A stretch of DNA of 30,436 nucleotides from a virus (lineage: Duplodnaviria; Heunggongvirae; Uroviricota; Caudoviricetes). Within the stretch, counting starts at the first letter, position 1; every line of letters begins with the position of its first letter. The DNA lies in the IMG/VR virus record IMGVR_UViG_2693429557_000019. The stretch is one strand, 5' to 3'. A program made the position numbers and the translations under genes. This document shows positions 6,604 to 30,436 of this stretch, piece by piece. The notes beneath the pieces were generated by a model. It did no database searches. It was not told the DNA's origin and saw only the letters and a program-made list of their open reading frames with translations.

Positions 6604-6726
6604 CCGTTTAACTCCGTGGTTAATGGGTGCAACTATTTTCTGTTGGGCAGTGCATGAGACGCTATTTGACCTGGCTGGTCAGTGGATGAAACAACAGATA
6701 AAGAAAATGCGGGCAATTCGCCCGCA

Positions 6727-6744
6727 TGTCCTGATTTGTACACA
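6727..6744. promoter_or_regulatory. Candidate Ogr-binding dyad TGT-N12-ACA of the late promoter for the FI operon
   Basis: Sequence tgtcctgatttgtacaca has TGT and ACA separated by 12 nt. It lies about 125-140 bp upstream of the FI start on the minus strand, the arrangement described for P2 late promoters. Only the dyad was seen; -10/-35 elements were not mapped. Confidence 0.4.
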
Positions 6745-6942
6745 CTCATTTTCCGACTGACAGTTTACATAGCCCAAACGCTATCAAATCTGACAGCCTG
6801 CTATGAGCGAAAAGCGTTAAATCTCACGATATCTGCTACCGGGAAAAATTTCGATTATCTTCGATGGGAACTTTGATAATGTAGTAAATGCCATTTTCAG
6901 CGATCACTTTTCAAGCGTGTGTAAATGATTAATGTTAAAAAA

Positions 6943-6972
6943 TTGACTTCACTGAAATAAGGTTGCTAGTAT
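6943..6972 (+). promoter_or_regulatory. Candidate sigma70 promoter for the cargo gene (TTGACT-N18-TAGTAT)
   Basis: TTGACT at 6943..6948 and TAGTAT at 6967..6972 in an AT-rich stretch about 40 bp upstream of the cargo ATG. A Shine-Dalgarno-like taaggaa lies about 8 nt before the ATG at 7014. Confidence 0.45.
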
Positions 6973-7013
6973 TTTTGGAGCAACCATTAATGTTTTTTAT
7001 TTAAGGAATGTAA

Positions 7014-8432
7014 ATGACATACGCACTGATTGATAATTCAACTCTAACTGCAGTCCAAAGAATCGAGGGGAAAGTAAAAACAAGATCGAAGGACTCAGTA
7101 GATACAGACATAATAGCATTTGAGAACTATATACAGTCTATTTTGTTCTATGATCACGTTATCGCGGTTGATGATTATATTCCAGAGTACCGTGGGAGTA
7201 GGATTTCAAGTTTCAGAGAGATATTATTTCTTGATAAAGCACAATATGGGTTGGATGAAATTGAAAGTGAAGCAAAAAAAATATCTGATGCATTGAAACC
7301 TAAAATTCGTGGTGGAACATTTGTTAATGACGATTTTAAAAAACTAATTGAACTTCTTCAGACACATATCATATGTACATGGGACATTAGTTCAAGTGTT
7401 TATCATCTAACACTGAAGAACTTATCTGATGGAGGTAAGGAGTTTGAAAAATATGGTAACATTGCTGCTGCCATTTTTTCAGAACTGCGTGATGCTGCTG
7501 AGTCTGGTAATAGAACAAATGGCGATGTTGAACTTCTCGATCGATTTGGCAACCCTATTCGCAAGGGGTACAAAGTTCCCGGAGCAAAATGGGGGGATGG
7601 CACATCTGCTGGTGAAGCATCAGATGCAATCAAAGCATTCGTGGCTTCGCTTGTATGGCTGGCTAATCGGGCAGTATTTTATTCTCTCACAGCTAAGTAC
7701 CTTCAAGCAGATACTTTTTTATATCCATTACGTCAGGCGTATCAACAGACATATTTAAGCCAAAACTGTCAGTATGGTTTTGACTATGCTAAACATATTG
7801 TAGAAAACTTTTCCACTTCGTTAAGTCATGATCTCATTGATATTCATTCTGGTGGTAAAGCTGTAGCAACAGCAACTTCGCTTCCTTTATTTTCGGCATG
7901 GCTCGCAAAAGAAACTGGTGATCCAAGTTGTATTGTTGAAGCTGCTTATAACATAAGGGACAACAACGAATTTGTAAGGGCCCGTGAGAAAATGCGAGAA
8001 ATAAAGCGCTTGTTTGATGAAAATGAATTGCCTCAAGCTAATAAGTCAGTAAGAGCATTGCTTACTGAAGTATCGAAAGAATCAGATTATATTCGAACTA
8101 AGTATGGGCTCAAGACTAGACAAGGTGTACCTGTAACTAAGCTTGTACATGTATACAATACTGTTGCGGCTATTAATTCCCTTCCGAAACTACCGACCTT
8201 TAATTTTAAAGTTAAAGTTCCTGATTTCTTATATGATCTTAAAAAACCCAAGGGGTTTCGTGCTCTCTATCGAAATTTGACTAATGATCTTTCTACTGTG
8301 TGGTCGTTAGGAGAAGCTCGAGATATTCTTGGAAGTAAAGTTGTGATAGATAATCATGCAAGAATTTACAGTCCGAAGCATGAAGAACCGCGTTTCAAAA
8401 ACTCTCATTCCCCATATAAGAGCCCGATGTAG
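7014..8432 (+). CDS. Hypothetical 472-aa protein, AT-rich cargo gene at the FI/G (Z/fun) variable locus
   Basis: Long uninterrupted ORF on the strand opposite both flanking phage operons. Visibly lower GC than flanking phage DNA. Own promoter-like elements and RBS. I recognise no catalytic motif and no resemblance to a P2 protein. Confidence 0.8.
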   Translation: MTYALIDNSTLTAVQRIEGKVKTRSKDSVDTDIIAFENYIQSILFYDHVIAVDDYIPEYRGSRISSFREILFLDKAQYGLDEIESEAKKISDALKPKIRGGTFVNDDFKKLIELLQTHIICTWDISSSVYHLTLKNLSDGGKEFEKYGNIAAAIFSELRDAAESGNRTNGDVELLDRFGNPIRKGYKVPGAKWGDGTSAGEASDAIKAFVASLVWLANRAVFYSLTAKYLQADTFLYPLRQAYQQTYLSQNCQYGFDYAKHIVENFSTSLSHDLIDIHSGGKAVATATSLPLFSAWLAKETGDPSCIVEAAYNIRDNNEFVRAREKMREIKRLFDENELPQANKSVRALLTEVSKESDYIRTKYGLKTRQGVPVTKLVHVYNTVAAINSLPKLPTFNFKVKVPDFLYDLKKPKGFRALYRNLTNDLSTVWSLGEARDILGSKVVIDNHARIYSPKHEEPRFKNSHSPYKSPM

Positions 8433-8546
8433 CTTAAGAAAAAGACACGCCCACCTTGTGCGTCTACTTCTGGCACAGAGCGGACTCTCAGATTAGGCTT
8501 TACTCTGTGCCATAGATATGTAAGCTCACACCAGAGCTCATACAAC

Positions 8547-9074
8547 TTATTGCGGCATTTCCGGCCATTCAGGATTTGCAGGATCCACACGACTGACCAG
8601 AACACTGTAGCGTTCCCATGCCTCCAGTCGACTGCGCTCCTCATCTGTTGCCATATTCAGCCTGACAGCGCGCTCCAGCGGCAAAATCACGGATTCAGCA
8701 TCTGCAAGAAGTCTGGCTTTCCGATTTTCTGCCTGCTGCTGCAATTCCTCTGCCGTATAAATTCGTTTAATCACTGTACAGTCCTTAAACATCCAGTTCC
8801 CTGAAATGTCCGCCCGTCGGTTAGCAGTAATATCCGGCACTTCAACAACACTTAATCCATCCGGTCTGATAGCTGTCACATCCTTTTCCACATAGCGGAT
8901 AATATTATCTTTGTCGTACGCTATTTTTATCGTGTCATCAGCAAAATACTTTTGTTCTTCGTACCAGTTCTTACCATCTTCTGAAAAAAACCAGACAACA
9001 TCAAAGTCCTTTGTCAATTGATATTGTTCAACCGTTTTTGGATTACCTGCCGTTATATTTATCAAATGCTGCAT
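8547..9074 (-). CDS. G: Tail fiber assembly protein G, 175 aa
   Basis: 175-aa ORF immediately downstream of tail fiber gene H; size and position match P2 gpG. Confidence 0.85.
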
Positions 9075-9077
9075 AAA

Positions 9078-11396
9078 TTATACCTGTGCCACGTTATACC
9101 AAGTCCCGTTAATGTATTTCTGCACCGGTCTGTAATATACGCCACCAATGTTATCGGCAGAGTTTGAGCCGGTATCCTGAACAATAATGCCGGAATATAC
9201 ACACCCGGACGGTGCCTGATGTGTCCATGTCATACCATTGTTCGCAGGTTTGTATGTGGCAGCACCACCAAGCCGGATATCCCGGACATAGCGTGAATCA
9301 AAGTTGCCATAGTTAGATGGTGATACCTGCCCGTTAACAGCAAAAGTGATGCTGTTATCTGTATTTCTCTGACTGTAAAAATGCCAGCCTGCATCATCAC
9401 CTAATTCAGCCACCACAGGACGACTTGAGTTTCCCCACAAATTGAATGCGGCTTCCTTCGTGGATGTATTGCTGCTGCTGACCGTGAACTTTTTCCCGCT
9501 ACCGGCACGTACTTTGGTACTTGAGACAATATCACCTGTAACACTCAGGCCATGCCCCATTGACACTCCGCCATTGGCGTTATTGATAGTCAGCGGTCTT
9601 AAGCCGTTCCATGTCCCAAATTTATCGCCAGAGGCCGTCAGCATTAAATATGTGCTGCCGCCATCATTCCTGATAAAGAATCCATAATTGCCATAAGCAA
9701 TGCGCAGACCATTAGCACTGAGTGATGTAATTTCACCTCTTGAACGGAGACCATAAGCGGAGCTGAGTGATAATTCTTCCTGAGCGTCATTGTTTCCTGT
9801 CGCCCAGCGAATTACCCCGCCCTGAACTGTTTCATGCCAGATAGTATCTCCTTCTCCACCACGAAACTTTCTGAGATATTTTTTGCCGCCTCTGGTGCCT
9901 GAACATAAGGCCGTAGACATATAGGCATTCTGGCTTCCGCCATCCTGATTAATCGTTCCGGTCATTGAGTCGCCCTGACGATTCCAGTCACGACGCCAGC
10001 CGGGGGAGTAGCCGTCCCCATGATTTATGTAAGTGAATTGCGCGCTGGTTGTACCGCCACCGCTTGATGTTGTTGGCGTGGTCACTCGGATAGTGATTGC
10101 AGATTTAGTTCCCATGACCTCGACGACACAACCAGCCAGGTGGATATCACCACATCCGGTATCCGTAATGATTTTGTTATTTGCATATGACCAGGAGCCT
10201 TTGCACATCCAGTACGGATGATTAAATGCACCACGGGAATCCAGCCATTCAATAAACTGAGCGGTTGTCCAGTTTCCGGCTTCAGTGCTCAAAGCGCCGC
10301 TATAAGCACGACAGGCACCGATATTTTTCGTGAAGGTATCCTTTCCCGGAATATCCGCACCGTTCTGATCTTTCTGAAGACGTTTTTCAGCATTGTCATA
10401 GGCAGACTTCACTGCTTTTGGCGTTGCGGCCAGCGTTTCAGAATCGCTGTTGATGGCACTACTTAGCTGGACAAGACCTTTTCGCGCTGTGGTGGCATCC
10501 TGTGCAGTGTATTTCCCGTTAGCAAGGTCATACGCTGTCTTAACCGCCTTTGGTGTTGCCGCAAGCGTTTCAGAATCGCTGTTGGTGGCGCTACTGAGCT
10601 GGACAAGACCTTTTCGCGCTGTAGTGGCGTCCTGTGCAGTGTATTTCCCGTTAGCAAGGTCATACGCTGTCTTAACCGCCTTTGGCGTTGCCGCAAGCGT
10701 TTCAGACGTGCTGTTGGTGGCACTACTGAGCTGGACAAGACCTTTTCGAGCTGTGGTAGCGTCCTGTGCGGTATATTTCCCGTTAGCAAGGTCATAGGCG
10801 GCCTTTACCGCTTTCGGCGTTGCGGCCAGTGTTTCAGACGTGCTGTTGGTCGCACTGCTTAACTGAGTAAAACCTTTTGCGGTCAGCGAGGCGTCCGGGT
10901 GACGTCGTGACTGTTCGTGCTCTGCAATTTTGTCATCAACGTAATCCTGTGTCGCCATCACCGTTGTGGTGTCAATGGTCAGCTCCACCGAGGCCACACT
11001 GCTGACGATGATGACCATGCGACAGGTCTGCGAACGCCCTGAGCCTTCGGCAAGAGCTGGCTTATAACTTTCGGCCATGTTCGCCACGGCAATTAACGTT
11101 CCCGCATCATCGTACAGGCCAAGCTCACGCATCCAGAAACCGCCCACCTCCGGCGGAATAACCAGCTCTGCGATAATATAATTACTGTTTCGTTTGTCCT
11201 GGCTGATTTTGTTCAGCGTATGTCGCCAGACTTCGTGGATAAGCCCGGTCTGTCCGGCATCCGGGACAGGCAATTTACCACCGCCATCCCCGACGGCCAT
11301 CGTGGTAATGTTGACCTTCCGCCCTCCCGGTGCGGTTGCCGCTGCCAGCTTTGCTGCACCGGCAGTGGTGATAACGGTTCTGAATTTTGTGCTCAT
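9078..11396 (-). CDS. H: Tail fiber protein H, 772 aa
   Basis: N-terminus MSTKFRTVITTAGAAKLAAA is P2 H-like as I recall it. Contains tandem 44-aa repeats (GLVQLSSATNS...TPKAVK.AYD) of the phage tail-fiber repeat type. Positioned between I and G. Confidence 0.9.
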   Translation of the reverse strand: MSTKFRTVITTAGAAKLAAATAPGGRKVNITTMAVGDGGGKLPVPDAGQTGLIHEVWRHTLNKISQDKRNSNYIIAELVIPPEVGGFWMRELGLYDDAGTLIAVANMAESYKPALAEGSGRSQTCRMVIIVSSVASVELTIDTTTVMATQDYVDDKIAEHEQSRRHPDASLTAKGFTQLSSATNSTSETLAATPKAVKAAYDLANGKYTAQDATTARKGLVQLSSATNSTSETLAATPKAVKTAYDLANGKYTAQDATTARKGLVQLSSATNSDSETLAATPKAVKTAYDLANGKYTAQDATTARKGLVQLSSAINSDSETLAATPKAVKSAYDNAEKRLQKDQNGADIPGKDTFTKNIGACRAYSGALSTEAGNWTTAQFIEWLDSRGAFNHPYWMCKGSWSYANNKIITDTGCGDIHLAGCVVEVMGTKSAITIRVTTPTTSSGGGTTSAQFTYINHGDGYSPGWRRDWNRQGDSMTGTINQDGGSQNAYMSTALCSGTRGGKKYLRKFRGGEGDTIWHETVQGGVIRWATGNNDAQEELSLSSAYGLRSRGEITSLSANGLRIAYGNYGFFIRNDGGSTYLMLTASGDKFGTWNGLRPLTINNANGGVSMGHGLSVTGDIVSSTKVRAGSGKKFTVSSSNTSTKEAAFNLWGNSSRPVVAELGDDAGWHFYSQRNTDNSITFAVNGQVSPSNYGNFDSRYVRDIRLGGAATYKPANNGMTWTHQAPSGCVYSGIIVQDTGSNSADNIGGVYYRPVQKYINGTWYNVAQV
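10392..10898 (-). repeat. About 3.8 tandem copies of a 132-bp (44-aa) near-identical repeat inside gene H
   Basis: The string gtttcag recurs at 10435, 10567, 10699 and 10831 (period 132 bp) with near-identical flanking sequence. Protein shows four repeats of AQDATTARKGLVQLSSATNS.SETLAATPKAVK.AYDLANGKYT. Confidence 0.85.
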
Positions 11397-11406
11397 TATT
11401 CCTCAC

Positions 11407-11937
11407 TTATCCGGGGTAAACCGTAATTACATCGCCGTCGTAAGCCACACCACCGGCGAACAGGTAGCCGGGAATGTCCCGGGTAATGTTCAGGCCAATA
11501 AGATGACGGCTTGCAGGTTTGGCATCAGCAATAAGCCGTTCCATTTCCTGATACATTGCCTCTGTGATGCCGCTTTCCAGTACACCAATATCAAGCCGGA
11601 AGGTGCCGGGCGGGTCACTGTTTTCCCACCACTCCGTCACGTTGATGAGATAGCCGAGCGGCTCCACCACACGCCGGATTGCGCCGATAGTGCCTTTATG
11701 ACAGTGGATGAAATAGGCATCGCGGATAACGGCGCGTTTTGTCGCTTCCGGCCACTTTTCATCCCACCTGTCGACCGAAAACGCCCACGCCAGCCACGGC
11801 AGCAGATTTGCCGGACAGGTATCCGGGTTCCACAGTTCACGAATCCTGACCGGCGTTTTTTCAATTTCCGCACAGGCTTTTGCGGCGGCAACTTCAAGCG
11901 GTGATGAGCCGGTCGGCAGCAGTCGCGAATCACTCAT
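11407..11937 (-). CDS. I: Baseplate assembly protein I, 176 aa
   Basis: 176-aa ORF between J and H; size and order match P2. Confidence 0.85.
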   Translation of the reverse strand: MSDSRLLPTGSSPLEVAAAKACAEIEKTPVRIRELWNPDTCPANLLPWLAWAFSVDRWDEKWPEATKRAVIRDAYFIHCHKGTIGAIRRVVEPLGYLINVTEWWENSDPPGTFRLDIGVLESGITEAMYQEMERLIADAKPASRHLIGLNITRDIPGYLFAGGVAYDGDVITVYPG

Positions 11938-12838
11938 CCGAGCCTCCGGTCACGACGCGGTATTCGGTACAGAAAGACGCCTGCGTACTGTTGAGCACGA
12001 TGTCGGCCAGCGGTGCAGTCAGTTCGACACGCTGCACGCCTTCCACATGCAAAGCGGCATAAATGGCAGACAGACGGATGTCGCGCCCCAGCCGGTGCTG
12101 TGCCGTGATGTACGCTTCCAGTTTTTTCACGGCAGCAGCGCGTATGGGTTCGCTTTCGGGACCAGGGTAAAGGTAAAGCGTGGCGTTTATCTGGTATTCA
12201 ACGATGGCGGCAGACTGCACGGTCACGCGGTCGGCCACCGGCCTGACGTCCTCACCATTAAGGGCGTTACGCACCACCGCCAGCAGGTCTTCGGATGCGA
12301 CACCGTTATTTTCACGTGACAGCACAGAGATGGTGACGCAGGCCGGAGACGGACTGGTTACAGAAATATCCGCGACACGCCCGTCGGCACTGCGACCATG
12401 ATACTGATAGGCCCCCACCGACCCGGCGACGCTTAAACCTTCAAACGCCTGCTGAATACGCAGACGATAATCCGTGTCAGATTCCATCACTGCCGGTGTC
12501 GGCGGGAGGGTCGAATCATCTGCCGGGGTGATAATCAGGCGCGTGGTGTTGTAATTGGCACCAATCACATCAAGGTCATTACCGGCGGCACAGGCCAGCA
12601 TTACCGCCCGTGCGGCCTCATTCACACGCTGACGCCAGATAAGCTCACGATAAGCATTTTCCTCCAGCAGTTTGACGAGAGGCTCGGATTCCAGCGTCAG
12701 GGTACGGGCGACCGCCTCCTGCTGGTCTTCCGGGTAAAGGGAAATCAGTGTCGCCTTGCGTTCGGCAAGAATGGTTTCAAAGTCCAGCTCCTCGACCACA
12801 TCCGGTGCGGGTAGCTGGTTCAGGTCGATAATCGGCAT
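11930..12838 (-). CDS. J: Baseplate assembly protein J, 302 aa
   Basis: 302-aa ORF; size and position match P2 gpJ. Confidence 0.88.
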   Translation of the reverse strand: MPIIDLNQLPAPDVVEELDFETILAERKATLISLYPEDQQEAVARTLTLESEPLVKLLEENAYRELIWRQRVNEAARAVMLACAAGNDLDVIGANYNTTRLIITPADDSTLPPTPAVMESDTDYRLRIQQAFEGLSVAGSVGAYQYHGRSADGRVADISVTSPSPACVTISVLSRENNGVASEDLLAVVRNALNGEDVRPVADRVTVQSAAIVEYQINATLYLYPGPESEPIRAAAVKKLEAYITAQHRLGRDIRLSAIYAALHVEGVQRVELTAPLADIVLNSTQASFCTEYRVVTGGSDE

Positions 12839-12842
12839 GGTT

Positions 12843-13190
12843 TCAACTCACAGGGATGGTTAACGAAAGTGGCTGGCCGGTGTCGTTGTGCTGGCCGGTT
12901 AACGTGACCGTCATTCGCCCGTCAAAGCTGCGCGCCGTGGTGACGGATGACAGGGTGACGCGGGCTTCCCATTTCAGCACGGCCATGTAACAGGCGACCT
13001 TAATCTGCAACTCAAGCGCCGGGGTCTGCGGCTGGTCAATCATTGACGCCAGCAACGAGCCGTAATCACGACGCATCACCCGTGAGCCGACCGGCGTGCG
13101 CAGGATATCGCCGATACTCTGGCTGATATGCTCAAGGTCAGAGACAGTCAGGCCATCACTGCGATTCATTCCGAGATAACGCGCTGTCAT
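12843..13190 (-). CDS. W: Baseplate wedge protein W, 115 aa
   Basis: 115-aa ORF; size and position V-W-J match P2. Confidence 0.85.
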   Translation of the reverse strand: MTARYLGMNRSDGLTVSDLEHISQSIGDILRTPVGSRVMRRDYGSLLASMIDQPQTPALELQIKVACYMAVLKWEARVTLSSVTTARSFDGRMTVTLTGQHNDTGQPLSLTIPVS

Positions 13191-18102: not shown

Positions 18103-19175
18103 TTACGCTCCCGGCTCTGCGGTCGCTTTAGCCGGTGTGGAGAAATCACCGACCTTAATTTTTTCCACCAGACAACCGGCGGCGTAGTCCTCCACCACGT
18201 AATCAATGTTCATTGACTCGTAGTTCTCCACGCGGTCGAGTTTCGGGTTTTCCACAATCACGCGGCGATGGCTGTCATCCATGTAGTAGATGGACAGGTT
18301 TTCCAGCTTCGTGATGAGCATCGCATCCGCCGGGAAGTACGGGACGCGTACCGCCGGCAGGTTACCGATGCGTTTCTGGCTGATGATGACGTCAGCGGCC
18401 AGCATCTCGCTGTTATCCTGCTCCTTGTTGACGATAGGGAAATACTTGTCCGCCAGTAGCTGACGCCCCACAATCACCACAAGGTCAGGGTCTTCCTGAT
18501 ACCAAGGTTCAATCAGGTTGTTGGTCGCATCCATCACCAGTGCATCGAGGCTTACATAATCACCGCCCTTACCCACGCGGATAACCTCAGAGGTGGTGCG
18601 GCCTTCCTCGTCAGTGACCTTGCTCATCACGCGCGCCGGGGCTTCATTCGGTATTTCTGCAGCCAGCCGACCGCCACATCCTGCAGCATCGGATTACTGT
18701 TGCGGTCAGAGGTTTCGGCACGCTTCACGCCGTTAAAACCGGCCATGATGAAATCAAGGGACTGGCGTTTGATAATGGCGTTACGGATACGGAGCTGGAA
18801 ATCCTGATAACGCGCCCACAGGTCAAGCGTTTTGTAGCGGATATAAAAATCGAAGTTAACCTGGTCGCATTCGTACTTGTTTGACGCCAGCTTCGAGAAG
18901 TCCTTCGGCTGACGCTCGGTGCCACCGGCGGTGTCGGTGGTGCTGGCGATGGAGCCGGTGACACCGATGCCAATTTTTTCCCCTTTCATTTCACTGACCG
19001 GCACAATGTTGATGCGGGTCAGAAAGTCAGAGGACTCCTGCATGGTGTTCATCAGGGTCTGGGTGACCGACGGTTCAACGGTGAATTTTTTCGACACATC
19101 ACCGGCGTCGATGCCGTTCAGCTCGGCAACACGGGACAGGTAAGCATTAAATTTAAAGCGGGTTTCCTGGCGCAT
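18103..19175 (-). pseudogene. N: Major capsid protein N, disrupted by a 1-nt frameshift (two ORFs of 182 aa and 175 aa)
   Basis: Two adjacent same-strand ORFs (18627..19175 and 18103..18630) in different frames together give about 357 aa, the size I recall for intact P2 gpN. The upstream ORF ends LQKYRMKPRRA-stop while the other frame reads NEAPARVMSKV across the same nucleotides, so a single missing base near plus-strand 18647..18648 accounts for the break. Confidence 0.75.
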
Positions 19176-23254: not shown

Positions 23255-23439
23255 CGCCCGCTTCATGGGGCGGTTTTAATGCAGTTGCATGAACACTCCA
23301 AGAGCACGCCAGCGCTAGTGATAACTAACAATAAAAGCGACTTCTGACGCATGCAAATCCATGCACATGATGGCATTTTTCATGATCTATGCGGTATGCT
23401 ATCCGCTTCAATTTTTAACACTTGTTAAGGGAACTAGAC

Positions 23440-24582
23440 ATGGACATTATTGATTTAAAATCTCAACTAGAAAATGAAGATAATGCCAAGAAAAGAGCAG
23501 AGTTGCTTGCTCAGCTAGAGGTGATAAAGCAAAACGCTGAAGAGCAAATTCGTGCTGAGCAAAAGGATGTGGATTTTGAGACCAAAGAATTTACCGTTGA
23601 GTTATTAGTTAATAAGTATCATAACGGATTAGAGGATGATACTAACGAACTCTTTGTTCCTGATTATCAAAGGGATTTTGTTTGGAGTGAAAAAAGACAA
23701 TCAAAATTGATAGAGTCTTTGATTTTGGGTTTTCCTATACCATATATATTTATAGCAGATGTTCTCTCCGAAGATCCCGATTTAGATGGGCGAATTGAGA
23801 TTGTTGATGGCTCACAACGAGTTAGGACTATACACGCTTTTATCCAAAATGAATTAGTTTTACAAGACCTGAAATCTTTAGACGTCCTTAATGGTTTCAA
23901 ATTCCAAGATTTACCATTATCACGTCAACGTCGTTTCATGAGAATTCCTGTCCGCGTTATAGAATTGAGTTCTAAATGCAATGAAGAAACCCGTAGAGAT
24001 CTTTTTGAGCGTATTAACTCTGGCAGCGATATATTGAAAGATATGGAAGTCCGTAAAGGATCAGAACTTGGTTCAACAAATTTATATACACAGGTTATTA
24101 AGCCATGCTCAACAATACCTAAATTTAAAGAATTAGCACCTTTATCTCAGACTAAAGAAAAACGAGATGAACGGTTAGAATTTACATTAAGATTCTTTGC
24201 CTACGTAGATAAGTACAAGAACTTTGATCATTCCGTACGGGATTTTCTAAATGACTATATGTCAGAAAATCGAGATATAGACGAAACTAAACAAAACTCA
24301 ATGAAACAAGAGTTTGCTAATGTTCTATCTTTTGTTGAAAACTATTTCCCAGCAGGATTCAAGAAAACTATTACTGCAAAATCTACACCTCGAGTTAGAT
24401 TCGAATCTCTCGCTGTTGGCGCAGCACTTGCATTACGTGAAGTCCCTGACCTTGTTCCCAAGAACTTAGATTGGCTAAGCTCAGAAGAATTCAAACGATT
24501 GACCACTTCCGACGGAGCTAATAGTCGCGTGAAGGTAATTGAACGAATTGAATATGTTCGGGATAAATTATTAGAGGATTAA
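23440..24582 (+). CDS. DUF262 / ParB-like domain protein (GmrS-like N-terminal domain, no recognisable HNH/DUF1524 nuclease), 380 aa
   Basis: Contains VPDYQRDFVWS and IVDGSQRVRTI, which fit the (I/V)PxYQRxxxW and DGQQR signatures of the DUF262 ParB/Srx-fold domain. N-terminal coiled-coil. AT-rich. Start taken at the ATG at 23440, 8 nt after an aaggga Shine-Dalgarno (the ORF track begins at a TTG at 23422). Confidence 0.85.
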   Translation: MDIIDLKSQLENEDNAKKRAELLAQLEVIKQNAEEQIRAEQKDVDFETKEFTVELLVNKYHNGLEDDTNELFVPDYQRDFVWSEKRQSKLIESLILGFPIPYIFIADVLSEDPDLDGRIEIVDGSQRVRTIHAFIQNELVLQDLKSLDVLNGFKFQDLPLSRQRRFMRIPVRVIELSSKCNEETRRDLFERINSGSDILKDMEVRKGSELGSTNLYTQVIKPCSTIPKFKELAPLSQTKEKRDERLEFTLRFFAYVDKYKNFDHSVRDFLNDYMSENRDIDETKQNSMKQEFANVLSFVENYFPAGFKKTITAKSTPRVRFESLAVGAALALREVPDLVPKNLDWLSSEEFKRLTTSDGANSRVKVIERIEYVRDKLLED

Positions 24583-24583
24583 C

Positions 24584-25264
24584 ATGGATCGTTTTCGTGA
24601 GGATTTTGACGAAAGGTCAGGAGAGATCTTGGCCTATTTGGATCTTTTGAAATTTATTGAGTATGCCGGTGCAGAACTGATATCAGCTGATGATAAAGAA
24701 CATAAGTTCTCCATTACTGCTCAATCACGAAAAACTCTAAAGGGAGCAGTATATATACTGTTATATAACCTCATTGAATCAACAATGAGAGAAGCTATCT
24801 GCCTTATTCATGAGACTATTTATGATAGAAACGTAGAATTTGACAAACTCAGGAAAAATCTCAGGTCAGAAATATTAAAAAGATTAAAAAATGAATCTGT
24901 AAATGTTGAAAGTTTAGTTAATCACCTTACCAAAGGTATATCTTGCGGTATATCTTATGGCACGTTCAACAAAAAGAAAATATTCTCAGGAAATATTGAT
25001 AGAGAGGAAATCAAAGAAAAATCGAAAATATATGGTTTTTCTACACATTCCGATTACACTCACACTAAACATGGTGAAAAATTAGCCACTGTTAAACAAC
25101 ATCGTAATGATTTATCTCATGGCAATGTATCATTTGCTGAGATTGGAAAAAATGTTTCATATCAGGACTTAGAGAATATTTCATTAGAAGTAATCGCCTA
25201 TCTTGATGCTATCGTGAATAATATAGAGCACTATATAAATAATAATGAATATTTAGAACAATAG
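24584..25264 (+). CDS. Putative HEPN-domain protein (Rx4H motif), 226 aa
   Basis: Translationally coupled to the upstream gene: TAA at 24580..24582 and ATG at 24584, with agagga 6-11 nt upstream. C-terminal region carries HRNDLSHG, fitting the HEPN R-x4-6-H motif. AT-rich. The HEPN call is motif-based inference only. Confidence 0.7.
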   Translation: MDRFREDFDERSGEILAYLDLLKFIEYAGAELISADDKEHKFSITAQSRKTLKGAVYILLYNLIESTMREAICLIHETIYDRNVEFDKLRKNLRSEILKRLKNESVNVESLVNHLTKGISCGISYGTFNKKKIFSGNIDREEIKEKSKIYGFSTHSDYTHTKHGEKLATVKQHRNDLSHGNVSFAEIGKNVSYQDLENISLEVIAYLDAIVNNIEHYINNNEYLEQ

Positions 25265-25270
25265 TTATAA

Positions 25271-25294
25271 GGCCTGTAAAGCAGGCCATTTTAT
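25271..25294. terminator. Candidate bidirectional terminator between the convergent HEPN gene and the methyltransferase gene
   Basis: Stem ggcctg / caggcc with a 5-nt loop, followed by attttat on the plus strand and an A/T-rich stretch on the other side. Sits exactly between the two convergent stop codons. Confidence 0.5.
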
Positions 25295-26319
25295 CATTCT
25301 AAATGGTTCTTGATTGATTGCCCAATTGCTTTTCCTAGTTCCACAGGAACAGCATTACCTATCATTTTCCCAATACTTCTTATAACAAACTTGTTTTTGT
25401 CTTCTACAAAAATATAATCCATCGGGAAAGTTTGCAATAAAGCAGCCTCTCTAAGAGAAATCGCTCTATGCTGTTCTGGATGTCCAAAACGCCCATTCCC
25501 GAAACCATAACAAAGAGTTGTAATTGTTGGACTTGGCTTATCCCAAGACATGCGCCCATATACACTAGCATACCCTTTACCGCTGGATTTCATATGACAA
25601 GCGGCAACCAACTCTTTCGGCCAGTCCTTCCATGTACCACCAGGAACAGAGTGTATAATTCTTTTTTTATTAATCGGATTTAATTTACTGGCTCTATGTA
25701 ATATATCATTTGGATCTGTTTGGCCATCTTCTAATGGAGGAAGATTTCCTATTGCATCTCTAACTGTTTTCAAAATAACATCGTCACGTTTTACTAACTC
25801 AATCGCCCCCAATTTTGAGGCCAACAATACATGACGGGAACGGTTTTGTGGGATTCCATATTCGACACAATCAATCTTAGACGCCCAAACATAATAGCCC
25901 AACTTTAACAATGAATTATAAAAATCATTATAAACTTTATGTTTAGTTACATCAGGAACGTTCTCCATTGTTACGATTTCTGGAGATACTTCGCGAATTA
26001 AACGTTCGAACTCATAAAGAAGAGGCCATTTTTTATCATCAGCCTTATCTTTTCCTTGAGTATATTTTGAAAAAGGTTGGCAAGGTGCGCATCCTGCCAA
26101 TACTTTTACAGACGCATCACCATAAAGCCTCAGCAGTTCCTCTTTTGTTACTTTAGCGATATCTTGCTCAATAAACTTAGATTTATTGTTTCTTTCATAG
26201 GGAAACCTACATTCCCCCTCAAGGTCAATGCCTGCAACGACATCAAGCCCCGCAAGCTGCAAACCATGAGTTAATCCGCCAGCACCACAAAAAAGGTCTA
26301 TCACCTTTACAGTCATCAC
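25294..26319 (-). CDS. DNA (cytosine-5)-methyltransferase, 341 aa
   Basis: Conserved C5-MTase motifs seen in the translation: FCGAGG (motif I, AdoMet binding), GCAPCQPFS (motif IV with catalytic Pro-Cys), ENVPDV (motif VI) and QNRSR (motif VIII). AT-rich. Confidence 0.9.
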   Translation of the reverse strand: MMTVKVIDLFCGAGGLTHGLQLAGLDVVAGIDLEGECRFPYERNNKSKFIEQDIAKVTKEELLRLYGDASVKVLAGCAPCQPFSKYTQGKDKADDKKWPLLYEFERLIREVSPEIVTMENVPDVTKHKVYNDFYNSLLKLGYYVWASKIDCVEYGIPQNRSRHVLLASKLGAIELVKRDDVILKTVRDAIGNLPPLEDGQTDPNDILHRASKLNPINKKRIIHSVPGGTWKDWPKELVAACHMKSSGKGYASVYGRMSWDKPSPTITTLCYGFGNGRFGHPEQHRAISLREAALLQTFPMDYIFVEDKNKFVIRSIGKMIGNAVPVELGKAIGQSIKNHLE

Positions 26320-26402: not shown

Positions 26403-27896
26403 TTAACGCTTCACTGAGTTTGACTCTAATACTGTTGAGAATCCCGACCACTCATCAGCGAGCGGGTAAGTGAATTTTTTCCCGTCATAATTTACGGTTG
26501 CCCCACGCGCCAGCACCTCAAGCTCCCATCGCTGCGGCCTGATACCGTTCTGAGCAAGGTCAACGCGGATACGGGTAATTTGCATTCGTTCCGACCGGGT
26601 CAGTCTGGCCGATGGCGCTATTTCATGCGGTTTTAACGGGCTTCCGTTTCTTTGCTGACGGTTTGGTCTTCTCAGTCCGTGTTTTAATGCACCTCTGAGC
26701 GCCCTCACAACCTCCGGGTCATTCCATTCGATAACACCGTCATCTACCAGATTAAGCACTGCTGCGGCGTGCTCAGAAGGTGTGGGAGCCGGTAACGAAG
26801 TATCACCACCAGTGAGCTTTCCACAGTTATTGACAGGACTCCGAGGCGCGGCGATGCCGCTTTTTAAAGTCAAAGGCTCAACGACCGGCACTTTCGGAAC
26901 AATGCGCCAGTCCGTCGTTCTGGTGATATGAATATGACGCGCGCCGAGATGCGGCGCGTAAATGCCGACCACTCTCTCGACTTCTTCCTCGTACTCGTTA
27001 ACTTCATCCGACGGACTACGGGCGACCCTGACAGTCTGACAATCGCGCGGGACATTTGCCCCACCCTGCGCGCTGATATACAGCGCAAAATCACCACTGT
27101 CTGCGGCGGCGCGTGCAGCCTCGACGCGCTCGTCAAACTCATCAGCAATGCTGACGCCGCGAGGCAATTTGCGTAGTTCACGGTAAGCCCCCATTGTCGG
27201 CAGGCCAACCGTTTTAAATTGCGGAATGCGCCACGTTGACGCCCATGCGGTAACAGCCGCGGCAGTATCTTTCAGCGGTCTGCCGCTATCGTTATCGAGC
27301 TGCCCATCCAGTGCATAGCCGTCGATATTTTTTGAGATGTATTTCGCGATATACCCCGCAGCACCGCCCCGATTAAGATGTTTTGCCTGAAAACGGTTTC
27401 GCGCAGCTCCTCTTTCGTCGCCATCCTCTTTGAGCGCGTAGCGACGCATGATTTCGATAATCTGGTTACGCTGGCGTGGATTACAAAAAAGCATCATATG
27501 CCAGTGCGGCGTTCCGTCGTGGTGTGGCTCGACGACTCGCAAACCGTAGACCTGTAAATCATTATCCTTGAATGCCGTGCGCATCAGGCTCCAGATACGG
27601 CAGAGATAACGCTGCGCATCCTTTGGATTAAATGCCTCATCGTTCCAGCCGTGATTTAGCTGGACGGTTTTACTTTCGCCTTTTCCAACCTGACGTGTCG
27701 GGTGATACTTTGACGGCGCGGTCAGCGTGATAAACATCCCCACATCACCTTCTGCGGCGGCGTAACGCTCAATACCGGCAATGGTGTTCATCAGCTCCAT
27801 CCGGCGAATTTCAGGATTAGAAATACTGCCCATCACCTTACTGATAAGGTCGATGCGCTCGCCTGTTTCCCTGTTTTCGAGATCACACGATTTAAG
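26403..27896 (-). pseudogene. A: Replication initiation protein A (rolling-circle HUH endonuclease), 5'-truncated at the IS21-family junction
   Basis: ORF carries the HUH motif (TPHWHMMLF) and a Tyr/Lys motif (YIAKYISKN) of Rep-type nickases. It is 526 aa against about 761 aa that I recall for P2 gpA. The first roughly 28 codons of the ORF-track ORF (to 27983) are read through IS-end tandem repeats and are not genuine gene A sequence. Junction placed near 27897 from memory of the P2 gpA sequence. Confidence 0.7.
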
Positions 27897-27910
27897 ATGC
27901 AAAATGGCAT

Positions 27911-28025
27911 CTGAATCGATCGCAGTTTGGCATTCGAATCGATCATGATTTGGCATCCATCTCCGATCACAGTTTGGCATCACAATCGATCACGATTTGG
28001 CATACTTCCGATCATTGATTGGAAT
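27911..28025. repeat. Five tandem 22-24 bp direct repeats (consensus about cgatcaNNRtttggcat), probable multiple terminal repeats of the IS21-family left end
   Basis: Units end in ttggcat at 27933, 27956, 27980 and 28003, and in ttggaat at 28025. A diverged sixth copy (aaaatggcat) ends at 27910. The array lies immediately upstream of istA. Confidence 0.6.
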
Positions 28026-28098
28026 TCGCCAGTCACTCCGGGAATTAACTCTTTTCACCACAGTCTCCATTGCCGTGTTTAAACCAGTGGAGACGTCA

Positions 28099-29664
28099 AT
28101 GTCCAAAAAGAGAAAATCCAGGAGCACTATGGAAACTTGTTTTAAGATCCTTCAGCTCAAGTTCGATAAGAAGCTGACTAACCGTTGTATCGGACTGACG
28201 TTACACATCAGCGCCTCAACCGTTTTTGAGGTTCTTGCCCGCTTCAAAGCCTCTTCTCTGTCATGGCCATTACCTGCGGATATATCCCATGACACGCTGG
28301 AGAAACTCATTTTCCCGCCCAAAGACACCTCTGCGTCAGAGCTTGTTATGCCTGACATGCTGTACTTCGATACGGAAATGAGAAAACCTGGCGTGACGCG
28401 CCAACTGTTGTGGATGGAATACAAGGCACAGGCGGGTGACAAAGCGATGGGATACTCACACTTCTGCCGTTGCTACCGGAAGTGGAAAAAAACGCGACGC
28501 CTCTCCATGCGACAGGAGCATCGTGCTGGCGAAAAGCTCTTTATCGACTTCTGTGGTCCTACGGTCCCTGTTATTAATCCGGACACCGGAGAGATACGCC
28601 GCGTGGCAATCTTCGTGGCTGTAATGGGGGCGTCCAACTATACCTATGTTGAAGCGTGCGAAGGTCAGGACATGATGTCATGGTTAAATGCCCACAGCCG
28701 TTGCCTGACCTTCCTGGGCGGCGTACCGAAGCTGCTCATCCCCGATAACCTCAGAAGCGCAGTGAAAAAAGCCGATCGCTATGAGCCTGTCATCAACGAC
28801 AGTTATCAGGCGCTGGCTGAGCACTATGGCACGGTTATTATCCCGGCCCGCCCGCGCAAACCTAAAGATAAACCAAAAGCAGAAAACGGCGTCCTCATCG
28901 TCGAGCGATGGCTTCTTGCCCGCATCCGTAATGAAACCTTCCACACGCTCAGGGCGCTGAATGCACGCCTTCGGGAGTTGCTGACGGACATGAATAACCG
29001 ACCAATGAAGGGATACGGTAATCAAACCCGCGCAGAACGCTTCCGCATGCTGGATGCACCAGCACTCTCTCCGCTGCCTCTGGAGCCTTATGAATACACG
29101 GAATACAAAGCCGTGAAGGTTGGCCCTGACTACCACGTTGAATATGCCCGTCACTGGTACTCCGTTCCACACGAACTGGTCGGTCAGCGTCTGTCACTGA
29201 AGGTGGGGCAGTCGGTGGTACAGCTCTGGCACAAGGGGCAGTGTGTGGCGCAACATCCGCGCAGCACACATGAATATAAACACACAACCAATCCGCTTCA
29301 CATGCCAGAACGCCACCGGCGGCATGGGACATGGACACCGGAACGCCTTATCGAGCAGGGAAACCGTACAGGTCCGTCCACAGGCCGGGTGGTTGAATCC
29401 ATGCTGAAAGCCAAACCCCATCCGGAGCTGGCTTACCGTGCAGTCCTGGGTCTGCTGGCACTTCAGAAAAAATACGGCCCGGAACGGCTGGAAAAGGCCT
29501 GTTACGTTGCCCTGCACTATAACGCCCCGGACAGACGCTTTATCGACAATCTGCTGCGTCATCATCGGGATAACGTTGAGCTTCCGTTATCCCGCCAGGG
29601 CGAACAACATCCGGCATATGCTTCAGAGCATGAAAACCTGCGTGGTCCTGGCTACTACCACTGA
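28099..29664 (+). CDS. istA: IS21-family transposase IstA (DDE), about 521 aa
   Basis: N-terminal basic/HTH-like region. Candidate DDE residues in FIDFCG, LLIPDN and AENGVLIVERW. Followed 16 nt later by istB. Start taken at the first ATG (MSKKRKS) of the ORF-track ORF, which begins at a TTG at 27997. Confidence 0.85.
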   Translation: MSKKRKSRSTMETCFKILQLKFDKKLTNRCIGLTLHISASTVFEVLARFKASSLSWPLPADISHDTLEKLIFPPKDTSASELVMPDMLYFDTEMRKPGVTRQLLWMEYKAQAGDKAMGYSHFCRCYRKWKKTRRLSMRQEHRAGEKLFIDFCGPTVPVINPDTGEIRRVAIFVAVMGASNYTYVEACEGQDMMSWLNAHSRCLTFLGGVPKLLIPDNLRSAVKKADRYEPVINDSYQALAEHYGTVIIPARPRKPKDKPKAENGVLIVERWLLARIRNETFHTLRALNARLRELLTDMNNRPMKGYGNQTRAERFRMLDAPALSPLPLEPYEYTEYKAVKVGPDYHVEYARHWYSVPHELVGQRLSLKVGQSVVQLWHKGQCVAQHPRSTHEYKHTTNPLHMPERHRRHGTWTPERLIEQGNRTGPSTGRVVESMLKAKPHPELAYRAVLGLLALQKKYGPERLEKACYVALHYNAPDRRFIDNLLRHHRDNVELPLSRQGEQHPAYASEHENLRGPGYYH

Positions 29665-29680
29665 CAGAAGGAACAACCGT

Positions 29681-30436
29681 ATGAGTGATAATCTGTTAAA
29701 CAAACTGACCCAACTGAAACTCCCGGCGATGGCCGGGAGCCTGATACGGCAACGGGAAACGCCTCAGACTTACGACGAACTGTCGTTCGAGGAAAGGCTG
29801 ACACTGCTGGTTGATGACGAGCTTCTGAGCAGAGAAAACAGTCGTGTGGCACGGTTGAGAAAAAATGCCTGCCTGAAATATCAGGCAACACCGGAAGGGC
29901 TGCGTTATCCGGCCTCAAGAGGTCTGCGGGCTGAACAGATGAGGGAACTGCTGAACGGCCACTACATAATCCACAGGAAAAACCTACTGATAACCGGTCC
30001 GACAGGATGCGGTAAGAGCTGGATAGCCAATGCGCTGGGCGAACAGGCATGTCGACAGAAATACAGCGTCCGGTACTGTAGAACCGGGCGATTACTGGAA
30101 CAGTTGGCTCAGGGACGTGTTGATGGCAGTTGGCTGAAATATCTGAAACAGTTGCAAAAAATACAGGTTCTAATCCTGGACGATCTGGGGCTGGAACAGT
30201 TAAGTAACGCCCAGTGTAATGACCTTCTGGAGATCACAGAGGATCGTTACGGACAAAGCAGCACGATAGTGGTAAGCCAGTTCCCGGTAGATAAATGGCA
30301 TGGTCTGATGGAGAACCCAACAACAGCAGATGCCATCCTGGACAGACTGGTACATAACTCACACAGAGTGGTCCTTCAGGGAGAGTCCCTGAGGAAAAAT
30401 CCCCCGACAGTGGAAAGCAGCGAAAAAACGAGTTAA
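29681..30436 (+). CDS. istB: IS21-family ATP-binding helper protein IstB, 251 aa
   Basis: Walker A motif GPTGCGKS and Walker B-like VLILDDLG. Start ATG at 29681 preceded by gaaggaa. Stop TAA is the last 3 nt of the window. Confidence 0.9.
   Translation: MSDNLLNKLTQLKLPAMAGSLIRQRETPQTYDELSFEERLTLLVDDELLSRENSRVARLRKNACLKYQATPEGLRYPASRGLRAEQMRELLNGHYIIHRKNLLITGPTGCGKSWIANALGEQACRQKYSVRYCRTGRLLEQLAQGRVDGSWLKYLKQLQKIQVLILDDLGLEQLSNAQCNDLLEITEDRYGQSSTIVVSQFPVDKWHGLMENPTTADAILDRLVHNSHRVVLQGESLRKNPPTVESSEKTS

Follow-up and report, generated by a model that had tools for sequence, protein, structure and literature searches.

The gpH proteins of phages P2 and L-413C form trimeric fibres on the baseplate and are determinants of host range (PMC7460101). 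The H protein of L-413C has only its N-terminal 207 amino acids (aa) in common with P2 H (PMC7460101). A short repeat of phage tail fibres, usually found in tandem, is curated in Pfam as the family PF03406 (Phage_fiber_2). In phage Mu the S' and S proteins are alternative fibres that arise through inversion of the G segment. Here an array of the PF03406 repeat is described in the tail fibre gene H of the IMG/VR virus record IMGVR_UViG_2693429557_000019 (Duplodnaviria; Heunggongvirae; Uroviricota; Caudoviricetes), a DNA of 30,436 nucleotides (nt) which is referred to at its full length as the window and is overall a P2-like prophage in reverse orientation. We consider, with a probability of roughly 0.85, that the array belongs to the proximal part of the shaft in a P2-type fibre, where it would act both as a modular spacer and as a recombination joint.

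The repeat array of gene H

Tandem Repeats Finder, applied to positions 9000..13000, revealed a single array at 10395..10856 with a period of 132 nt, 3.5 copies, 89% matches, no indels and a score of 686. A repeat search gave three copies of 226 nt that begin 132 nt apart, and chance is far from explaining such a pattern. The array is in frame within the H open reading frame (ORF), 132 nt being 44 codons, and with the half-linker that precedes it spans approximately 10395..10901. A first-pass annotation, made from the sequence alone, had placed about four in-frame copies of a 44-aa unit at 10392..10898, which is accurate to a few bases. Pfam returned four stretches, and comparison of the units gave three full units followed by a 29-aa core. 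Each full unit consists of the conserved core, KGxVQLSSATNSxSETLAATPKAVKxAYD, and a 15-aa linker, and the fourth unit is wholly divergent after codon 29.

The array is made of tandem copies of the known 'phage tail fibre repeat' PF03406. The total score against this family was 257.3 bits, the gathering cut-off being 22, and all four units fitted the profile nearly full length, the best stretch covering positions 1-41 of 42. The core motif G-x-V-x-L ... S ... A-A-T-x-x-A-V-K was present in 4/4 units, and in an alignment of 62 diverse units these columns were invariant or at least 90% conserved. The family usually occurs in tandem in phage tail fibres, and the protein that carries the array is a tail fibre with relatives of 1-18 copies. 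Among representative proteins, 1584 were matched by the 44-aa unit, at as many as 18 stretches per protein.

Units 1-3 are 91-98% identical as protein and 79.5-94.7% identical as DNA. Units 2 and 3 are the closest pair, differing at 7 nt (94.7% nt and 97.7% aa identity), while unit 1 shares 83% and 79.5% of its nucleotides and 93% and 91% of its amino acids with units 2 and 3, respectively. Between units 1 and 2, 17 of the 22 differences fall on third codon positions. The repeats had been called near-identical, which describes the proteins well and, at the level of DNA, only units 2 and 3.

Copy number among related H genes

Relatives of H were found with the N-terminal domain alone as the query, which avoids copy-number bias; 80 loci came from IMG/VR and a further 23 from other species. 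The 98 complete H genes among them, together with P2 H and the H of the window, formed a set of 100 arrays. In every complete H gene the array started at residue 173/174 with a spacing of 44 aa and contained 1-5 copies. The 76 complete IMG/VR genes had two (14 genes), three (4), four (47) or five copies (11), and the genes from other genera one (7), two (8), three (6) or four (1). Four copies is therefore the modal number, and the protein database added forms with six. Copy number had been described as able to vary between isolates, and it differs between relatives in whole steps of 44 aa over a range of 1-6 copies. The array ended after the 29-aa core in all 100 arrays, and in most relatives this core was followed by a Mu-Sc-like NGADIP...NIG segment before the distal modules diverged. 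As a feature the array of the window is real but ordinary, with a known repeat family, a known gene and the commonest copy number among close relatives, and its four copies are few compared with other fibres.

The genes were clustered by the sequence downstream of the last core, which defined the distal-module types. Within the type of the window four copies were present in 18/20 genes, and the remaining two had five (L045) and three (L074). Their protein lengths of 816 and 728 aa correspond to the 772 aa of the window's H plus and minus 44. A comparison of H lengths across relatives had been proposed as a check. A second type, with 709-aa proteins, had five copies and one variant with three, the P2 type had two copies, and the other types were uniform. 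Across the nine largest clusters the copy number departed from the mode in 3/72 genes, and the array, although first described as recombination-prone, is not a fast-changing one.

The first and last units behaved as positional orthologues across arrays, and it was the internal units that were gained or lost. Unit 1 differed by 0-11 nt from unit 1 of relatives, and the three-copy array of L074 retained a unit 3 nt from unit 3 of the window and had no equivalent of unit 2. The 48 four-copy arrays comprised 39 distinct DNA sequences, in which orthologous units differed by 8-10 nt on average and the neighbouring units 2 and 3 by approximately 14 nt. In a few arrays neighbours have been homogenised: the distance between units 2 and 3, typically 14 nt, is 7 nt in the window and 0 nt in L024. 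Of the variable columns in the four-copy arrays, 93 were third codon positions of H, compared with 16 and 22 for the other two positions, a pattern of purifying selection in the H frame. Typing of the core DNA at up to 2 mismatches gave too many types, and tables of mismatches were used instead. Judged from these comparisons, the array is old, maintained as protein by purifying selection and altered by whole units only rarely. A literature search on copy-number variation of the repeat in P2-like H found no study, and the Pfam family was cited only in lists and domain tables.

Role of the array and alternative explanations

The DNA homology between E. coli fibre genes and H stops at H nt 594, 726, 858 or 990, positions that share one register and fall in successive units, and a 187-bp piece of the array is common to H and lambdoid stf genes at approximately 87% identity. 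The position of the array, the shared register of these endpoints and the spread of the unit among fibres led us to read it as a shaft spacer and a joint for homologous exchange. The array starts directly after the baseplate-binding N-terminal domain and ends with a bare core, with a swappable distal module beyond it. As a modular spacer, whole units could be added or lost without harm to folding, making the proximal shaft of the trimeric fibre longer or shorter. As a recombination joint, it would provide conserved sequence common to P2 H, Mu S and the lambdoid side tail fibres, by which units could undergo gene conversion or cross over unequally and distal modules could be exchanged between phages. 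A more speculative extension, which we regard as rather doubtful, is that selection has fitted the number of units to the distal receptor-binding module, shaft length then being adjusted to how deep the receptor of each tip lies or to its geometry. If true, this would explain why the numbers are type-specific (two in P2, four in the window, five in the 709-aa type) despite the gain and loss of units.

Several observations weigh against a spacer and joint. Copy number is almost fixed for each distal-module type, so either the gain and loss of units is rare or the number is held by selection. An AlphaFold2 model of aa 158-349, calculated without an alignment, had a mean predicted local distance difference test score of 42 and a predicted template modelling score of 0.23 and was unusable. 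Searches of the PDB by phmmer with the array, and with a profile of the 62 diverse units, found the repeat in Mu S chains only, each with one copy, the other matches having E values above 0.09 and being attributable to chance. As these single-copy chains are the only ones in the PDB, we infer both the spacer role and the length added by each unit. The published model of the Mu virion covers only the N-terminus of gp49 (PMC11915804). The prophage also looks defective, with a capsid frameshift and an insertion sequence (IS) element in gene A, and its H may never enter a virion.

Arrays of three, four and five copies within the distal-module type of the window, of three and five in a second type, and one array with two identical neighbouring units would suit a fast-switching contingency locus, in which frequent changes of copy number within a lineage provide bet-hedging on fibre length. 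This is very improbable given the three departures from the mode described above, and the variants L045 and L074 also carry many substitutions, which marks them as old lineages. Orthologous units are moreover closer to each other than neighbouring units are, and frequent slippage would call for units more alike than the 80-95% identity seen here. On/off switching, as known from contingency repeats, does not occur as all variants remain in frame, and the frequent copy-number difference among near-identical genomes that defines a hypermutable repeat was not found (3/72). The repeats might instead form a binding surface for a host polysaccharide or for a part of the virion such as the sheath, with copy number tuning avidity and not length. 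The strong conservation of the core protein across very different fibres and the characteristic copy number of each distal module would agree with this, as would the Mu fibres observed docked along the sheath (PMC11915804). We nevertheless consider a binding surface improbable: host range in P2-like phages is set by the tip (PMC7460101), whereas the repeat is located at the other end of the fibre, beside the baseplate, and the conservation would follow equally well from what the folding of a trimer demands.

Short reads can lead to faulty assembly of tandem repeats as long as 132 bp, approximately 41 of the 120 best protein matches are labelled 'partial' and contigs often end in the gene, which raises the question of whether the four copies are the collapsed or expanded form of another array. 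A query of 1101 bp across the array and the junction with the distal module was compared with complete E. coli genomes. The 60 best of the roughly 2,400 with a match aligned to it in a single ungapped piece, and at least 80% of the query was covered in 275 E. coli genomes. Sequenced P2-like phages, for example Yersinia phage vB_YpM_46, also matched straight through the array, and the 483-nt array recurred without a difference in L005 and L006, both of them independent viral contigs. Proteins in the first 60 matches, partial ones included, ended 26-332 aa past the last core and never within the array. The units diverge by 5-20% in DNA, enough for the placement of 150-bp reads, and four is the usual number for this distal module. 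The ungapped genome matches and this divergence make collapse or expansion highly unlikely, contrary to the concern first raised about assembly, and the assembled array can be trusted for annotation.

Two ORFs of more than 100 codons with start codons lie within the array, and the possibility that either (10450..10797 or 10463..10795) is a genuine overlapping gene can be given hardly any weight. When translated they merely reproduce the periodicity of the repeat, and the substitution pattern in the four-copy arrays fits the H frame only, variation falling on third codon positions of H. The +1 frame of ORF 10463..10795 was stop-free across the array in only 3/100 related arrays, and none of the antisense frames was stop-free in more than 14/100, giving a range of 0-14 for the alternative frames. 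Both ORFs are by-products of the repeat and should stay unannotated as genes. They had been described as mirror-image artefacts on the opposite strand; both do arise from the repeat, but 10463..10795 lies on the H strand.

The feature has little import beyond annotation. The repeat has its own curated entry in Pfam, PF03406, and the mosaic make-up of P2-type H genes is well documented. The survey may aid the engineering of P2 or tailocin fibres by indicating natural, tolerated fusion points and spacer lengths, the relevant pattern being a range of 1-6 units among P2-type H proteins, a constant number for each distal module, and an end at a bare core.

The distal part of H

The distal modules of the relatives diverge after a post-array segment, as seen at the junctions of the 100 relatives. 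In the window the last core and this segment, NAEKRLQKDQNGADIPGKDTFTKNIG, align with the end of the Mu S constant part, and the Mu S region that matches the segment presumably encodes the gix crossover site. In a PDB sequence search the distal part, which presumably binds the receptor, was matched by 8ju3 (E 3.7e-90 for the chain), 5yvq (E 8e-60) and T4 gp34, 4uxe (E 6.9e-25). Residues 334-487 match Mu S' (8ju3 residues 177-332) at approximately 80% identity, residues 540-604 match a gp34-type trimerisation domain (PF21446), and residues 544-771 resemble Mu S towards its C-terminus (5yvq residues 260-503) as well as that part of P2 H. A Mu S'-like piece and a Mu S-like C-terminal piece are therefore fused in the single H polypeptide.

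The likeness to Mu S' and S suggested an invertible segment of the Mu G, P1 C or p15B Min type, and this was ruled out by the absence of flanking inverted repeats and of an invertase. No inverted repeats of note flanked H or G, the best pairs being 16-36 nt long at 72-88% identity. Only one distal part of H and one G were present in the window when alternative variable fibre and chaperone genes were sought. No serine invertase (Gin, Cin or Hin) was found near the fibre genes, the sole ORF between G and FI (7014..8432) having no match in Pfam, NCBIfam or PADLOC.

In three related H genes, from Phytobacter (L085), Citrobacter youngae (L088) and C. portucalensis (L104), the last core is followed by NA(S/N)ARL(A/S)(K/R)(D/E)RNG(A/S)DIPN..LFVQNIGLQ/K. 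This sequence is almost the same as the end of the Mu S constant part, and these prophages might carry invertible fibre segments.

Identity of H and other features of the prophage

The coordinates of H, its parts and the adjacent genes are given in Table 1. Pfam analysis of the H protein gave PF12571, four copies of PF03406 and PF21446, and no NCBIfam model matched it. The N-terminal domain (PF12571) aligned nearly identically with that of P2 H, as is typical of P2-type gpH (Peduovirus), and the gene order is J-I-H-G with the Caudo_TAP chaperone gene directly downstream. By sequence and context ORF 9078..11396 is identified as a P2-type H tail fibre gene. The first-pass annotation had assigned the same gene, and the PF12571 domain, the neighbours I/J and G, and the alignment of both protein ends with P2 H all agree with it. 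It had also estimated H to be about 100 aa longer than P2 H, which is correct for the total (772 compared with 669 aa), although of the 103 extra residues the array accounts for 88.

The best complete E. coli genome match was BS15R-A, in which a stretch 99.9% identical to H carries the RefSeq label 'tail fiber protein'; the prophage of that genome has other hotspot cargo. Among the matches listed, proteins 100% identical to the N-terminus and array of H from an organism other than E. coli came from Shigella sonnei only, and all of these were truncated or partial (431-625 aa). The source of the window may thus be Shigella or a near relative of E. coli.

Table 1. Coordinates of gene H, its repeat units and neighbouring genes in the window.
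Feature	Position	Strand	Basis
Gene G, tail fibre assembly chaperone, directly downstream of H	8547..9074	-	PF02413 Caudo_TAP, E 2.8e-33
Gene H, P2-type tail fibre protein, 772 aa	9078..11396	-	ORF, Pfam, alignment with P2 H (NC_001895)
Distal mosaic part of H, presumably receptor-binding	9084..10397	-	PDB sequence search, PF21446, P2 H alignment
Post-array segment NAEKRLQKDQNGADIPGKDTFTKNIG, aa 335-360, homologous to end of Mu tail fibre S constant part	10317..10394	-	phmmer against 5yvq and 8ju3, residues 99-174
Repeat unit 4, core only, aa 306-334, array end	10395..10481	-	Pfam, unit comparison
Repeat unit 3, aa 262-305	10482..10613	-	Pfam, unit comparison
Repeat unit 2, aa 218-261	10614..10745	-	Pfam, unit comparison
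Repeat unit 1, aa 174-217, 29-aa core and 15-aa linker	10746..10877	-	Pfam, unit comparison
Half-linker HPDASLTA before unit 1, aa 166-173, resembling the inter-unit linker end QDATTAR	10878..10901	-	Translation
N-terminal tail-collar/baseplate-attachment domain, aa 1-151	10944..11396	-	PF12571 Phage_tail_fib, E 2.8e-58, profile 1-150 of 150
115-aa ORF antisense to H, repeat by-product	10450..10797	+	44-aa periodic translation
110-aa ORF on H strand, +1 frame, repeat by-product	10463..10795	-	Frame offset 1 to H, 44-aa periodic translation
Tail_P2_I gene	11407..11937		Pfam
Baseplate_J gene	11930..12838		Pfam

The P2-family major capsid gene N (18103..19175, - strand) is split into the ORFs 18627..19175 and 18103..18630, each of which corresponds to one half of PF05125. 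The related prophage of E. coli BS15R-A has an intact N, relative to which one base is missing at approximately 18648, and this is either a frameshift, in which case the prophage is defective, or a sequencing error. Replication gene A, in the region 26403..30436, is truncated: its 526-aa product aligns with no more of the Phage_GPA profile than positions 133-321. Directly beside it is an IS21-family element with an IstA-like ORF (27997..29664, with rve and Mu-transposase C domains) and an IstB ATPase (29438..30436) that runs past the end of the window. The truncated gene A and the IS element are a second sign of a defective prophage.

The P2 old/tin hotspot, flanked by portal gene Q and gene A, contains cargo at 23422..26319 that comprises a 386-aa protein with a GmrSD_N domain (PADLOC NsnA 1.7e-54, PD-T4-2_A 2.5e-35), an adjoining 226-aa HEPN protein (PF18737) and, on the other strand, a C-5 cytosine methyltransferase. 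This region is likely an anti-phage defence island. Between G and FI, where P2-like phages have the variable Z/fun position, lies the 472-aa ORF 7014..8432 (+ strand), its orientation opposite to that of the tail genes. It matches phrog_13435 (function unknown) over its full length, and the sequenced phages of the collection searched match only the flanks of 6604..8546 (15%). The ORF is a candidate moron or defence gene.

Comparison with known tail fibre systems

Compared with the PF03406 family nothing essential differs, the unit of the window being a 29-aa core with a 15-aa linker and the last copy a core only. A close counterpart is P2 gpH (NC_001895, 669 aa), with which H shares a nearly identical N-terminal 217 aa, a repeat start at residue 174, the C-terminal tip motifs SSSNTSTK...WHFYSQRNTDNS...QKYINGTWYNVAQV and the gene order I-H-G. 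P2 has two cores whereas the window has four, with exactly 88 aa, or two units, inserted at that place, and the middle and distal module of the window is Mu S'/S-like and accounts for the remaining 15 extra aa.

The S and S' fibres of Mu (gp49 and gp51; 5yvq, 9ki1, 8ju3) are the next comparison. Mu S has one core (aa 117-151) followed by ...NGADIPNKPLFIQNLG, and the window carries the homologous NAEKRLQKDQNGADIPGKDTFTKNIG after its last core. Mu, however, has one copy of the repeat and places the variable part of the fibre on the invertible G segment, while the window has four copies without inverted repeats or an invertase and fuses S'-like and S-like pieces in one polypeptide. The lambdoid Stf and StfR proteins contain the same core repeat, with up to 10-12 tandem copies in representatives, but have another N-terminal domain (PF08400) and linkers that alternate between 15 and 27 aa, giving a 44/56-aa spacing.

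The H gene of Yersinia phage vB_YpM_46 is 96.7% identical to that of the window over nt 1-2129 in one piece and so has the same four-copy array, the last ~190 nt, encoding the tip, being unlike the window. A further likeness is found in L-413C, the H of which has been published as a recombinant mosaic (PMC7460101).

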